Assembly (NCBI GenBank): GCA_964610875.1
Contig: CAZSWP010000038.1
Coordinates: 1-34,384 of the forward strand
Direction: 5' to 3'
Source of the DNA: an uncultured archaeon
Lineage (GTDB): Archaea; Asgardarchaeota; Thorarchaeia; Thorarchaeales; Thorarchaeaceae
DNA: 34,384 nucleotides
Made by a program: the position numbers and the translations under genes. Positions within the stretch are counted from its first letter, which is position 1, and every line of letters begins with the position of its first letter. The notes under the pieces were generated by a model that was not told where the DNA came from, made no database searches, and was given only the letters and a program-made list of their open reading frames with translations. This document shows, in pieces, positions 21,032 through 34,030 of this stretch.

Positions 21032-21973
21032 TTATTCACAATACAATCGGAAAGCATTTTCCCAGTATATTTTCTCTAACACTCCATCAGGTAGACAGAG
21101 TCCATTTATGTATGTACCTCCTTTACCAACAGTATCCTTGTCAACAAAGGGAAGTGGACGCATTCTGACATTGCTTTCGAAAATAAGCCTCTCGGTTAGA
21201 TGCCTCCCATCATAATAGTCATTCTCAAGTGTTCTGGCAACACAATCAGTTCCAAAAAGAATTCTAGCTTTATATTTCCCAACGAATCTTCTAGCATTGT
21301 CTGGATCTTTACTTAATTCTCGTGCCATCCATCTGGCTGAACTAGTATCTACACTCAAGTTAGGATATGTATCAAACAGTCTTTCTAGATTTGGCAGACG
21401 ATGTTGTTCTGCTTGTGCTGCAAAATGCGCCGCTTGAAATCGAAGTTGTTTATTCTTCTTAAGCCTGTCTTCAAATTCTTGAAGATGGTCTTCTTTAGTG
21501 CCATAGACCTCAGAATTTGTGTAACGAGATTGAAAATATGTATCTGGGTCTGCGATATGTATCAAAACAGGAATATCTGCATCCTGAAAAGCATCAAAAA
21601 GAGGATCAAAAACATCGCTATCTACAGAAGAAACTCTCTCTGAATTTGATAACCTGTCACTCCAGAATGGTGCAAAATGCATCTTTGCCAGTGAATATCC
21701 AGTTGCACGCAAGTCTTTAACTTCTTGAATTGCTGCATCTGGTCCATCAGTAAAGAGTGTCCATCCAGAAAAATATCTTGCAAAAGAAAATCTATCTGGA
21801 TATCTTTCCTGGTATTGCGAGATATCATCTCCGTGTACTATCAAGACAGATTGCTCTACACCATACTTTCTCCCAATCCTCACATAGATATCTAGAGCGT
21901 CAATGTCTATAACATGAGCATGACTATCAAATATAGGTCCTTCATATCGGAAATTGTCATTACAATCTGTCAT
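21032..21973 (-). CDS. Amidohydrolase-2 family metal-dependent hydrolase
   Basis: DSHAH, PVLIH, AAH, VDTS, ILFGTD and KIYWENA motifs. Confidence 0.9.
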   Translation of the reverse strand: MTDCNDNFRYEGPIFDSHAHVIDIDALDIYVRIGRKYGVEQSVLIVHGDDISQYQERYPDRFSFARYFSGWTLFTDGPDAAIQEVKDLRATGYSLAKMHFAPFWSDRLSNSERVSSVDSDVFDPLFDAFQDADIPVLIHIADPDTYFQSRYTNSEVYGTKEDHLQEFEDRLKKNKQLRFQAAHFAAQAEQHRLPNLERLFDTYPNLSVDTSSARWMARELSKDPDNARRFVGKYKARILFGTDCVARTLENDYYDGRHLTERLIFESNVRMRPLPFVDKDTVGKGGTYINGLCLPDGVLEKIYWENAFRLYCE

Positions 21974-23668: not shown

Positions 23669-24994
23669 CTATTCAATTCTGGCCCAGAGCTTTTCAGCTG
23701 ACTTCATAGAAACTTCGCTTACTTTATGATCTTCGATTTTGGCCATTTTATAATTCTCTATGACCATTTCTCCATTAACCAAAACATCTCTGACATCTCT
23801 ACCGCCAAATGAGTTGACAAGATGACCAATGACTGTGTCTTGACGAAGTGGAGTAGGTATTCTCTCTCCATTTAGTATCACAATATCAGCTAGTTTTCCT
23901 TCTTCCAAGCTACCAATCTCATCCTCCAAACCATAACATTTGGCGCCGCCTAATGTTGCCATATGGAAAACTTCAGAAGGGCCAATTATACTTGGATTTC
24001 CACTTTTTAGTCGATGGACGGTCATTGCACAGCGCATGTTTTCAAAGGGGTCATATATCCAGCCATCATTACCTAAACCAACAGTAATTCCCATTTCAAG
24101 CATTTCAGGAACTGGCGATGTTCCTACCGCATTCAGCATGTTACTCATTGGATTATGCGCTACAGAAGTATTATTCTCTTGGATTAATTCAAGTTCTCTT
24201 CGGTTGACATGAACGCAATGGGCTAGGATTGTCCTATCGCTCAGAACTCCCATCCTGTGAAGACGTTCCACTGTACGCTCACCATAATTCTCCAGATTAT
24301 GATAGAGGTCAACCAACCCCTCTGATGTATGAACTGTCAAAGGGAGTTGCATTTTACTTGCGTTATCAACCGTTTCTGCGATAATATCATCTGTTACCGT
24401 GAACGAAGCATGAATGCTCAACATGCAAGAAATTAACGGATCTCCTTCAACCTTCTTCGCAAATCTGACACCTTCTTGGAGACCCCGCTCACCTTCTTCT
24501 TCTGAACGACGTTCTGTCAATTCAAATGCAAGCATCCCTCTCATACCAACTTCTCTTGCTCCTCGAGCAACAGCATCAAGACTAGATTCAATTGAATTTG
24601 GGCCTGAATATGTATCGGCAAAGAATGTGGACCCATTTCGAAGCATATCCGCACTTGCTGCTAGAGAACTTGCATATGCATCATCTATTGAGAGTGCGAG
24701 GTCCACTGGCCACCAGACTCGCTGTAGTATCTGAGCAAAATCCGTAGGAGGTTCGATATCTAAAGCCGCTCCTCTCAATAGAATACCATAGAGATGTGTA
24801 TGTGCAGTTATGAGACCTGGAATCACGACACAACCATTGCAGTCAATTTTTCTATCAGCAGACCCTGAATAAGTTCCCTTCTCTATTTTCGAGATTCGAT
24901 TGCCCTCGATAAGTAGGTGACCTCTTGGGATAACGATACCATTATTGCTTCCGGTCACTATTAGCGCATTTTCCAGTAGTAGGGTCTCTGACAT
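23669..24994 (-). CDS. SsnA/AtzA/MTA-SAH deaminase-like amidohydrolase
   Basis: PGLITAHTHLY, PPTDF.QIL..VWW, HASFT, HTSEG, AHCVH, HNPMSN, GND and GKLADIV motifs. Confidence 0.92.
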   Translation of the reverse strand: MSETLLLENALIVTGSNNGIVIPRGHLLIEGNRISKIEKGTYSGSADRKIDCNGCVVIPGLITAHTHLYGILLRGAALDIEPPTDFAQILQRVWWPVDLALSIDDAYASSLAASADMLRNGSTFFADTYSGPNSIESSLDAVARGAREVGMRGMLAFELTERRSEEEGERGLQEGVRFAKKVEGDPLISCMLSIHASFTVTDDIIAETVDNASKMQLPLTVHTSEGLVDLYHNLENYGERTVERLHRMGVLSDRTILAHCVHVNRRELELIQENNTSVAHNPMSNMLNAVGTSPVPEMLEMGITVGLGNDGWIYDPFENMRCAMTVHRLKSGNPSIIGPSEVFHMATLGGAKCYGLEDEIGSLEEGKLADIVILNGERIPTPLRQDTVIGHLVNSFGGRDVRDVLVNGEMVIENYKMAKIEDHKVSEVSMKSAEKLWARIE

Positions 24995-25045: not shown

Positions 25046-26500
25046 TTAGAAATCAATATCCACACGTTTTACTGTACCCTTGCTAGAACGATACACAATT
25101 CCTTCTTTTTCTAGTTCCTCGAGCGCTTCTACTACTTCTTCTGCAGATAACTCCACTTCAGGGCCATGTTCCTTTAGATCATCCATTGTCACTTCGACGG
25201 TATTGTTCTGTGATAATTTCTTCAATATCAAGAGAAACCTATCAGTTGTAGGAGAACTACTATCAACTGCATCCATGTCAATCTCGAGTGGAATACTCTT
25301 CTCTTTGGATTCTCTTTTTCCATCTGATGCATCTTTTCGGGCTTGCAATAGAGCAGCCATGAGGTCTACCTTCTCTTTCGGCTCCTCCTTCTCTCCGTCT
25401 TTTCTATGTAGATCTGCAAGACTAACACCATCATCCTCTTCAAGATCTCCATCTTCTATGTATGGAATTGGATCTTCAATGATTTCAACACCAAGCCAAG
25501 ATGCATCAACATCTTGGTTTTTACCAGCAGCTCTAAGTAATTGTCGTCTGTATTTCTTCTCGATTCTCTTCCTCTGTTTTTCAAGAGTTGATTTATGACA
25601 CTCTATAGAGCCCAACTGTAGCATAATACGTTCTGCTTGTCCCCTCACTCGTGAATGTGAATCTGTTATCATATATCCAAGGATTTTCAATATGCTTGTG
25701 AATCTTGATTCTTCAATATTGATATTCTCTAGTAATGCTTGTTTGACTCTCCAATCTGGGTCTGCAACGATTTCCATGACAAGTCCGGAGGCGGAAGTTA
25801 TACCTATCTTACCAAGAGTCGCTGCAACTTCAGCTCTATCCTGCCAATCTCCCTTCACGAGATATGTAGAAAGGTGCTTAACAGATTTCTTATCTACAAT
25901 CCCACAAATGTATGGTAACAACTCTGGTTTCTTCTTTACGGATTTTTGTACTAGCAACTTCACAATTCCGCTATGCTTCTTCCTTGGCATCACAAGCATC
26001 TTGGGGATTGTGCCATATTGGATTGTTTCAATATGATTACGGATACGTTTTCTCACCCATCTGATACCAGGGTCTCCTAGAAGGATCATCAAGCCAAAAA
26101 CTGTTGGTTGATGTTCTCTCCCAAGCTTCTTCAGTGCTTCTATCCAATTCTTTTTCTCAGATTTGCTTACTGGAGGTCCAATCATGCTGAAAGATTCCTC
26201 TATTCCTTGCAGCACCTGTTCACGTTCTGCAGAATTAAGATTCTTCATCGACTCGAAAAGCTCTGAGATATACTTCCCATAGGCATTTCTTCCAGCTGTT
26301 CTAAATACGAGTCTTCTGAGTGTTGCATCGTTTGTATCCAGAAGAGCCATGGTCTTCGGTAGCAACGACTTAGCAGTTTCATGCATCATTAATTTCCCTG
26401 CTGAAGAATACATTACTCCCAAATCAGGAGAATCAAGGTTTGAATAAATGGACCTTAGCTCACGAATTTTCTTCGTTTCAGCTTTTTCAAAATCCATCAT
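25046..26500 (-). CDS. HEAT-repeat protein with acidic linker and C-terminal winged helix
   Basis: HEAT-like repeats (DWQDRAEVAATLG, DPDWRVKQAL, DSHSRVRGQA); C-terminal ALEELEKEGIVYRSSKGTVKRV resembles the wH at the end of archaeal MCM or RPA32. Confidence 0.8.
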   Translation of the reverse strand: MMDFEKAETKKIRELRSIYSNLDSPDLGVMYSSAGKLMMHETAKSLLPKTMALLDTNDATLRRLVFRTAGRNAYGKYISELFESMKNLNSAEREQVLQGIEESFSMIGPPVSKSEKKNWIEALKKLGREHQPTVFGLMILLGDPGIRWVRKRIRNHIETIQYGTIPKMLVMPRKKHSGIVKLLVQKSVKKKPELLPYICGIVDKKSVKHLSTYLVKGDWQDRAEVAATLGKIGITSASGLVMEIVADPDWRVKQALLENINIEESRFTSILKILGYMITDSHSRVRGQAERIMLQLGSIECHKSTLEKQRKRIEKKYRRQLLRAAGKNQDVDASWLGVEIIEDPIPYIEDGDLEEDDGVSLADLHRKDGEKEEPKEKVDLMAALLQARKDASDGKRESKEKSIPLEIDMDAVDSSSPTTDRFLLILKKLSQNNTVEVTMDDLKEHGPEVELSAEEVVEALEELEKEGIVYRSSKGTVKRVDIDF

Positions 26501-27438
26501 TTCTCGCCTCCTTTCGTAGCCTTTTTCTTGCTACGTCTGGCCTTCATTCTCTCCCTGCTAGATTTCTTCGGACTTGTTTTCTTCTTCCTCTTCTTTTTAT
26601 CAGGTATAAATTCGGTAAGAGTAGCCTGTGAATCATCATCTTTTTTCTTGGTTTCAGTTTCTTTAGGTGTAGTCTCTTCTTCATCCAATGTCTTGCCGTC
26701 TAGAGTAAGTTGTTCCGTCAGACCTGTTAATTCATCAATTCGAGTACTATCGATTTCCAATTCGAGGAGAATATTTTCATAATTCTGTTCTAATTCTTTG
26801 GCTCGAGAATCATCCATAGGTATAGTTTTTTCAGTAAGTTGACGTTCTCGCAGCACTCTTCTACCAATGACTGTTTTATGCAATTTGGAAATGTCTAGTT
26901 TATCGTTCTTAACTTCGGGCTTAGCTTTGCCGAATTGTTCTATTTTTGCTTCCTCTAATTGTGGTACTAGATACCCAAAATTATCTCTCTTGAGGGCGGA
27001 TGATTCAAGATAATCAAGACTTCTTTGCTTAATTAATTTCTCAGCAGCATCAGAAACAGTGTTACGGACATCCTGTCTCCCTGCCTTCCAGCTCTTAGCT
27101 TTTGTTAGAATAGAGAGTATTCTAAAAGAGGATTCATCAATTGCCAAACTGAGACAATGAATATCAAGAGATGCAAAGACCGCATCTCGTATCAAAATCA
27201 TGGTTTCAGAAATATCCTCGGTTGTTTTCTCTTTGTCCCAATATTTTTCAAGTAATTTATCAATACGATGCCAAGGATTATTTCGTTTGTCTTCCCAATA
27301 TAATTTCATACTCTCAATAAGATAATCAATATCCCCTCGTTTTACGGAGTCGCATATCCCATCAACAAATGCGAGTTTGCCTTTAGATTTCTTACGGGGA
27401 TTTGGCAGGATTGTTTTCCTCCGATTCAGTAGACTCAA
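26497..27438 (-). CDS. Hypothetical helical protein with PIP-box-like motif and Lys/Arg-rich tail
   Basis: 313-aa ORF with TTG start; QATLTEFI followed by PDKKKRKKK; its stop overlaps the next start (ATGA). Confidence 0.8.
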   Translation of the reverse strand: MSLLNRRKTILPNPRKKSKGKLAFVDGICDSVKRGDIDYLIESMKLYWEDKRNNPWHRIDKLLEKYWDKEKTTEDISETMILIRDAVFASLDIHCLSLAIDESSFRILSILTKAKSWKAGRQDVRNTVSDAAEKLIKQRSLDYLESSALKRDNFGYLVPQLEEAKIEQFGKAKPEVKNDKLDISKLHKTVIGRRVLRERQLTEKTIPMDDSRAKELEQNYENILLELEIDSTRIDELTGLTEQLTLDGKTLDEEETTPKETETKKKDDDSQATLTEFIPDKKKRKKKTSPKKSSRERMKARRSKKKATKGGEK

Positions 27439-33475: not shown

Positions 33476-34030
33476 CTACATTAGCTCTAGACCAGATGCT
33501 CGTCTAATTAGAGTTCCGAGTCCAAGACTTGAGAGGAAGTAAAATGAAAAGAGGTTCAATCCAAAGCCTGCTCCTGGGACATTGTATCCAAGCCAGCCAT
33601 CAATGAAGAAGAGTAAATCTTGTACGTTGAAGGGTAGAATGGCAACTGCCGCACCTCCATATATTGCTCCCAATATGGCCCATATCAACAGCAGTGGAAT
33701 ATAGAACAAGAGCATGGGTTTACATCTGGATGTCATCATTCTCGATTGGATTGACATTATCCTTCTCTGACTGTCCATTACTTCTTGAAGCAGCATTGGA
33801 TCATTTGTTTTCCTTGCTTCATTGAATTTATCCCTCCATGCTTTGACTTCTTCCATGTCTGTTTTGAGCTGCTCCACATCTGTAAACTTTTTTGTTAAAA
33901 ACAAAGAGATGAGAGATATCCCCACACTTATTCCTAGGATGAATGGTACAGACATGGGAAAGCTCGAAACTGGTTCAAAGAAGCTAGCAATACCTTGAAT
34001 GATGTCGCCATAGAGGTCCAAATGTTCCAC
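33476..34030 (-). CDS. DUF106 / EMC3-TMCO1 (Oxa1-superfamily) membrane insertase
   Basis: TM, coiled coil, KPMLLFYIP, TM, and a final FYFLSS TM segment; GTG start. Confidence 0.88.
   Translation of the reverse strand: MEHLDLYGDIIQGIASFFEPVSSFPMSVPFILGISVGISLISLFLTKKFTDVEQLKTDMEEVKAWRDKFNEARKTNDPMLLQEVMDSQRRIMSIQSRMMTSRCKPMLLFYIPLLLIWAILGAIYGGAAVAILPFNVQDLLFFIDGWLGYNVPGAGFGLNLFSFYFLSSLGLGTLIRRASGLELM

Follow-up and report, generated by a model that had tools for sequence, protein, structure and literature searches.

A linked gene pair of Thorarchaeota encodes an orphan protein with a PIP-box-like motif and a HEAT-repeat winged-helix protein, a candidate PCNA-tethered accessory complex

Results

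We analyzed a 34,384-nucleotide stretch of DNA from an uncultured archaeon of the Thorarchaeaceae (contig CAZSWP010000038.1 of assembly GCA_964610875.1, the whole of which is referred to as the window) and focused on two adjacent open reading frames (ORFs) on its minus strand. The first encodes an upstream protein of 313 amino acids, hereafter UP, and the second a protein of 484 amino acids, hereafter HEAT-wH, in which HEAT repeats are followed by a C-terminal winged helix (Table 1). Our results suggest that the pair is probably a new accessory complex of DNA replication or repair. In its fuller form, the proposal is that UP and HEAT-wH make up a Thorarchaeota-specific, non-catalytic complex that is tethered to the sliding clamp PCNA and to DNA, which we consider an even call.

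The two genes are consistently linked. In each of the 63 loci with enough flanking sequence, which cover 16 genera and protein identities of 30-57%, UP immediately precedes HEAT-wH. In a survey of 301 Asgard genomes, HEAT-wH was present in 66 of the 76 genomes of one Thorarchaeota-like family and in none of the 225 genomes of 29 other Asgard families. The UP profile matched 65 of the same 76 genomes, two of which contain only a paralog (so that about 63 remain), and likewise none of the other 225. A large protein collection yielded 157 homologues of HEAT-wH, and all source names among the 120 listed were Thorarchaeota or Promethearchaeota (Asgard). An earlier interpretation of the window made without database searches (the sequence-only reading) had proposed to check the linkage of the pair across Asgard archaea; the linkage stands, while the range comes down to a single family. 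The same reading had described an ATGA stop/start overlap of the two genes, which is indeed found at the junction (GAG AAA TGA / ATG ATG GAT), with a Shine-Dalgarno sequence six bases 5' of the HEAT-wH ATG. Relatives do not keep this 4-nt overlap (gaps of 0-34 nt elsewhere), but they do keep the adjacency. UP starts with a TTG codon, and the N-terminus is alignable with those of its homologues, supporting this start.

UP was not assignable to any known family. Neither Pfam nor NCBIfam contains a matching family, the only hint being a sub-threshold ARID match (E 0.059), and a sequence profile search of the PDB gave nothing. The AlphaFold2 model comprises a confident helical domain (residues 20-234, predicted local distance difference test (pLDDT) >90) and a disordered tail from residue 235, with pLDDT <50 for residues 253-313. 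For the fold, Foldseek returned nothing from the PDB at E<=0.001, and VIA-align, run exhaustively against 48,161 chains, reached a best Z score of 6.4, which covered a single helical hairpin only. In the ESM Atlas, the fold search remained below a template modelling (TM) score of 0.3, and no credible match came from the feature search. When 1.84 billion representative proteins were searched with a profile of the domain, only 43 matches were retrieved, 33 of them at <1e-30. In agreement with the sequence-only reading, neither protein of the pair mapped to a known enzyme in the library, profile, and fold searches. No paper on the family was found, and as far as libraries and literature searches show, the UP family, its orphan domain, and its HEAT/winged-helix partner are undescribed.

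At the boundary between the UP domain and its tail, we identified the motif T-E-Q-L-T-L-D-G, in which Q243, L246, and G248 are invariant and T241 and T245 nearly so. It is kept even in lineages that lack the PCNA-interacting peptide (PIP) motif described below, and we regard it as a candidate contact for the HEAT partner. Two UP genes of the family are interrupted, one by an in-frame TAA (L011, G146:C80) and one by a TGA at a locus where HEAT-wH is split too (G155:C3:156893-158214). The interruptions reflect either decay of the copies or faulty assembly.

The disordered tail carries the sequence QATLTEFI, which the sequence-only reading had recognized as a PIP box, and its residues are conserved. 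The strict pattern, defined as Q-x-x-[LIVM]-x-x-[FYW]-[FYWLIVM], was found in 53 of 61 distinct UP tails, with the consensus Q-x-x-L-T-[ED]-[YF]-[ILVM]. In the 57 tails that could be aligned, Q occurs 53 times, L 57 times, T 48 times, D or E 51 times, F or Y 57 times, and I, L, V, or M 55 times (56 if F is included at position 8); in addition, 31 tails have P at position 3. The motif is kept inside an otherwise unalignable disordered region with variable flanking residues. UP thus shares with PIP boxes both the pattern residues and the disordered location. The PDKKKRKKK stretch that follows QATLTEFI had been taken as the end of UP. It is present as described, but another 26 K/R-rich residues lie beyond it, and the 35 residues after the motif have a net charge of +16. 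Among orthologues, the tail after the motif spans 13-78 residues and is basic in most cases (+9 to +24).

The UP motif closely resembles the PIP boxes of its own host. The pattern occurs in the last 50 amino acids of 31 of the 2698 ORFs of the window genome (1.1%), of which six are recognizable replication or repair proteins (Pfam-verified). C-terminal motifs of the host are QCVLTEFL in the Y-family polymerase, QTTILDFL in Nre, QTVLSDYF in PolD DP2, and QSSLSDFF in FEN1, to which QLTLETWV of an XPG-like protein and QQTLLDF of RNase HII, which misses the strict pattern, can be added. The core L-T-E-F-[LI] is common to UP and the end of the Y-family polymerase. The protein ending in QLTLETWV is a short XPG_I-only protein (178-204 aa; L071, G000:C4:65528-66061), encoded by a truncated FEN1/XPG-like gene in addition to that of the canonical FEN1.

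Docking of UP on PCNA is predicted by complex modelling. The window genome encodes a single PCNA (L027:1501-2253), which was modelled (23-row alignment) together with UP residues 222-313 (21-row alignment). The interface score ipSAE (interaction prediction score from aligned errors) was 0.68 in three of three runs, compared to 0.00 for the best of three controls. In calibration, 58 of 80 solved complexes attained the ipSAE mark, as did 2 of 110 mismatched pairs; these counts hold only roughly here because own alignments were used for the PCNA model. Contact agreement and partner pLDDT did not fall below 44% and 43, respectively. In the confident part of the predicted interface, UP residues 270-275 and 277-279 face PCNA residues 40, 43-47, 123-128, 227, 243, and 245-249; residues 123-128 belong to the interdomain connector loop (IDCL) and residues 245-249 to the C-terminal tail, so that the motif is seated in the canonical PIP site. 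This modelling lends in silico support to the clamp association put forward by the sequence-only reading. Some genomes of the family contain two PCNA genes in tandem (G093:C50:12131-13824, G108:C38:24920-26565, and G103:C6:122906-124540); they are 65-69% identical to the PCNA of the window genome and point to a recent duplication of PCNA in genus g9.

HEAT-wH has the three parts seen from the sequence alone, namely HEAT repeats, an acidic linker with EDGDLEEDDG, and a terminal winged helix, as confirmed by Pfam and AlphaFold2. It matches Pfam HEAT_2 (PF13646) with an E-value of 2e-6 and 28.4 bits (cut-off 27.7). The model, built from 37 homologues (pLDDT 85), consists of a helical-hairpin solenoid (residues 1-330), a disordered stretch (residues 346-406) that includes EDGDLEEDDG and a conserved helix (residues 380-393), and a winged helix of three helices and a beta-hairpin (residues 415-480). 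The solenoid matched generic HEAT/ARM structures, among them a PP2A-mimic effector, IntS4, and importins, with Z scores of 14-15, the range expected of any helical repeat. Its fold searches thus returned generic repeat proteins only, and the Atlas feature search recovered just the Thorarchaeota cluster of HEAT-wH itself. Family-wide, the solenoid is basic (median isoelectric point (pI) 9.5), whereas the linker (pI 4.2) and the winged helix (pI 4.8) are acidic. Three short linker motifs, namely D-P-I-P, G-V-S-L-x-D, and an L-L-x-A-L-L-x-A helix, are kept throughout the family and are candidate docking peptides.

The best structural match of the winged helix was the C-terminal winged helix of archaeal MCM (2ma3; Z 10.6, root-mean-square deviation (rmsd) 1.7 A over 66 residues). 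The Sulfolobus MCM winged helix was likewise retrieved by a PDB profile search (2m45, E 7e-4). Other winged-helix domains follow closely, including SAMD1, ORC/Cdc6, histone H5, and Scc1-C (Z 9-9.7). Residues 412-475 gave weak sub-threshold Pfam matches to RPA_C (E 0.007), MCM8 WHD, MCM4 WHD, and Stork_head. Because all of these Pfam matches are below the cut-offs, membership in the MCM/RPA32-type winged helices holds at fold level only. An identity as MCM helicase was considered and rejected: the alignment to the NCBIfam MCM model is confined to its last ~80 positions (E 0.003), and the remainder of the protein is HEAT instead of an AAA+ ATPase core and an N-terminal OB/zinc domain.

Evidence that UP and HEAT-wH act together comes from a helix-hairpin-helix domain, HhH2 (Pfam HHH_5), that changes its place within the pair. 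In genus g4 (L005, L074, L080), HhH2 replaces the basic tail at the C-terminus of UP. In L022 and P0059, UP stops directly after T-x-Q-x-T-L-D-G, and HhH2 together with a basic linker is found at the N-terminus of HEAT-wH. P0163 unites the PIP motif, one basic run, HhH2, and another basic run. Since HhH2 is found in either chain, a non-specific duplex-DNA-binding module would belong to the pair rather than to one of its proteins. We additionally found a thorarchaeal paralog family with a UP-like core that precedes HEAT_2 repeats on a single chain, an arrangement that matches the gene order of the pair (hhalign probability of the core 95-96%, E 5e-8 to 6e-9). One paralog is encoded in the same genome (L036:5131-6384, i.e. 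G000:C3:101130-102383; 418 aa, hhalign probability 94.8%); others are P0162 and P0166, and proteins of this type with 410-462 aa are present in many genomes of the family. The paralog at L036:5131-6384 carries no PIP motif, and its neighbors, HypF and an ADP-forming acyl-CoA synthetase, are uninformative. In hhalign comparisons, the HEAT parts of P0162 and L036 showed no specific similarity to the HEAT-wH profile; what the paralog shows is therefore only a UP core beside HEAT repeats rather than the two orthologues fused. It is supportive of a joint function of the pair but not conclusive. An ~800-aa UP-HEAT-wH fusion was not found among the longer proteins searched, which is weak evidence.

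Two genes downstream of the pair encode Amidohydro_1 and Amidohydro_2 proteins (window positions 23669-24994 and 21032-21973, both on the minus strand); they are syntenic with the pair in distant family members (L001, L003, L005), without an evident functional link. The window also encodes an EMC3/TMCO1-like membrane protein, a member of a eukaryote-type insertase family (33476-34030, minus strand; Pfam E 7e-16), whose gene is near the pair in L005 as well.

Table 1 Features of the UP/HEAT-wH gene pair (positions in the window)
Feature	Position	Strand	Basis
UP gene, orphan family	26497..27438	-	ORF, TTG start, no Pfam/NCBIfam match
UP globular helical domain, residues ~20-234	26737..27381	-	AlphaFold2 pLDDT >90; no recognizable fold
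T-E-Q-L-T-L-D-G motif, residues 241-248, domain/tail boundary	26695..26718	-	Residue conservation
PIP-box-like motif QATLTEFI, residues 271-278	26605..26628	-	Pattern conservation and complex prediction
UP K/R-rich disordered tail, residues 279-313, net +16	26500..26604	-	Sequence, model, orthologues
ATGA overlap	26497..26500	-	Junction sequence; GGAGG at 26507-26511
HEAT-wH gene, 484 aa	25046..26500	-	ORF; 157 homologues
Basic HEAT solenoid, residues 1-332, net +21, pI 9.8	25505..26500	-	HEAT_2, model pLDDT >90, fold matches
Acidic disordered linker, residues 338-410, net -13	25271..25489	-	Model, charge; motifs DPIP, GVSLxD, LLxALLxA helix
C-terminal winged helix, residues 415-484, acidic, pI 4.6	25049..25258	-	Structural match 2ma3, profile match 2m45

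Discussion

The above results can be combined into a model in which the pair works as an accessory complex on the clamp. The PIP box in the disordered C-terminal part of UP would occupy the hydrophobic pocket beneath the IDCL of PCNA, while the adjoining K-rich tail, or HhH2 in some lineages, could contact duplex DNA in a non-specific manner. The orphan helical domain of UP would hold HEAT-wH, and the basic solenoid, the acidic linker, and the acidic MCM-like winged helix might then serve other proteins, and possibly DNA, as a platform. The restriction to one family and the loss of the pair in some genomes argue for an accessory rather than a core role.

Several observations weigh against this model. 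In five tails, Q or position 8 is lost from the motif and L-[TSM]-[DE]-F-[LE] is retained, and three lineages (L022, L076, L077) are without any motif. In UP, the motif lies 35 residues from the C-terminus and not at the extreme end as in the other clients of the host. The docking score may reflect likeness to solved PIP-PCNA complexes, many of which are available, rather than the behavior of this copy. The winged helix is unlikely to bind DNA because it is acidic. No replication or repair gene was found among the neighbors, and the conserved downstream genes encode amidohydrolases. Finally, at least one family genome of 97% completeness (G128) is without both genes, which indicates that the module is dispensable.

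Part of these observations would be accommodated if UP and HEAT-wH formed a heterodimer on nucleic acid in which the motif docks the HEAT solenoid, the winged helix, or another protein instead of PCNA, and the pair served as a clamp-independent scaffold associated with the nucleoid, chromatin, or RNA. We consider this rather unlikely, but it is the main rival. Solenoids often bind extended peptides, the motif is internal to the tail, the pair persists in the three lineages without it, and the neighborhood is free of replication genes. Moreover, the constraint is tighter than a minimal PIP box needs for T at position 5 (48/57), for D or E at position 6 (51/57), and for P at position 3 (31/57). 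However, the L-T-E-F-[LI] core also ends the Y-family polymerase of the host, the PIP pocket is filled by exactly the UP motif in the predicted model (controls at 0.00), and the HhH2 variants indicate duplex DNA rather than RNA.

The charges of the two proteins raise another alternative, which the sequence-only reading had already considered. The acidic linker or the solenoid of HEAT-wH could shield the basic tail of UP in a karyopherin- or importin-like way until delivery, making the pair a self-contained chaperone. The opposite net charges of UP tail (+16) and linker (-13) fit this idea, and the Foldseek matches include importin-alpha as well as designed armadillo binders of (KR)n peptides. 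These importin and armadillo matches are generic, though (TM 0.2-0.3, rmsd 12-16 A), and the basic solenoid (pI 9.5-9.8) should repel a K-rich tail. The charges also do not covary: linkers of -6 to -21 are combined with UP tails of +9 to +24 or of -1 to -8, and the linker is still acidic (-9 to -15) in lineages with an HhH domain in place of the UP tail or with a short, non-basic tail. The chaperone idea lacks support and is very improbable. It would be harder still to credit that the two genes are mere neighbors with unrelated functions and that the motif is a chance match. It is true that 1.1% of the ORFs carry the pattern near the C-terminus and that synteny within one family can last by descent alone, as the likewise conserved, unrelated downstream amidohydrolase gene illustrates. 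Yet the adjacency holds at 63 of 63 loci in 16 genera whose proteins share 30-57% identity, the HhH2 module crosses the gene junction, a fused paralog architecture exists, and the motif is conserved within an otherwise unalignable region.

Known archaeal PCNA partners are mostly enzymes, i.e. polymerases, nucleases, ligase, and helicases, and clamp tethering by PIP boxes is a known mechanism. If the model of a clamp-tethered accessory complex is true, the pair would represent a dedicated two-subunit, non-catalytic HEAT/winged-helix scaffold on the clamp, an adaptor type typical of eukaryotic replisomes. The UP fold matches nothing solved, and the pair sits in an Asgard lineage, adding an entry to the poorly charted replication and chromatin toolkit of these archaea. 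Its restriction to one family and its losses argue against a direct relevance to the origin of eukaryotes.

Comparison with known systems

The combination of parts in the pair recalls the chromatin assembly factor CAF-1. Its large subunit (Cac1/p150) possesses PIP boxes, a basic DNA-binding KER region, an acidic ED region, and a C-terminal winged helix. PIP box, basic DNA-binding segment, acidic disordered segment, and terminal winged helix would all have counterparts here, distributed over two chains. As the window genome encodes a histone, the pair might be pictured as an independently arisen archaeal functional analogue, a PCNA-tethered factor for chromatin assembly or histone handling; UP would supply the PIP box and the DNA anchor, and the linker and winged helix of HEAT-wH would handle histones or basic chromatin proteins behind the fork. 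We regard this as quite improbable. No sequence or fold homology to CAF-1 was found, the basic segment of the pair is a disordered tail instead of a long single helix, and WD40 partners are missing. In addition, the winged-helix domain (WHD) of CAF-1 binds DNA, whereas the acidic nature of the winged helix in HEAT-wH (pI 4.6-4.8) argues against a DNA-binding WHD.

The winged helix and the repeats of HEAT-wH have better-known counterparts as well. Like the winged helices of archaeal MCM (2ma3, 2m45) and RPA32C, the one in HEAT-wH hangs on a flexible linker, but it is attached to neither an AAA+ nor an OB-fold body. With PBS-lyase-type HEAT proteins (HEAT_2, alphaRep designs), HEAT-wH shares the repeat signature and the solenoid fold; it differs in having no bilin-lyase context and in the addition of the linker, the winged helix, and a conserved patch specific to its family (AEREQVLQ, LGREHQPTVFG).

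For UP, a eukaryotic PIP degron as in p21, Cdt1, and Set8 was considered and rejected: T-[DE] at positions 5-6 is conserved as in these proteins, but just 33% of orthologues have the basic residue at +4 that defines the degron, and archaea are not known to possess CRL4-Cdt2 machinery. UP also resembles archaeal PIP clients, i.e. FEN1, Y-family polymerases of the Dbh/Dpo4 type, Nre, PolD DP2, and RNase HII, which like UP carry Q-x-x-L-x-x-[FY]-[hydrophobic] in a disordered C-terminal segment. UP is set apart from them by the lack of a catalytic or known domain, by a motif that precedes a tail of 13-78 residues rather than ending the protein, and by a dedicated partner gene encoding a HEAT/winged-helix protein.

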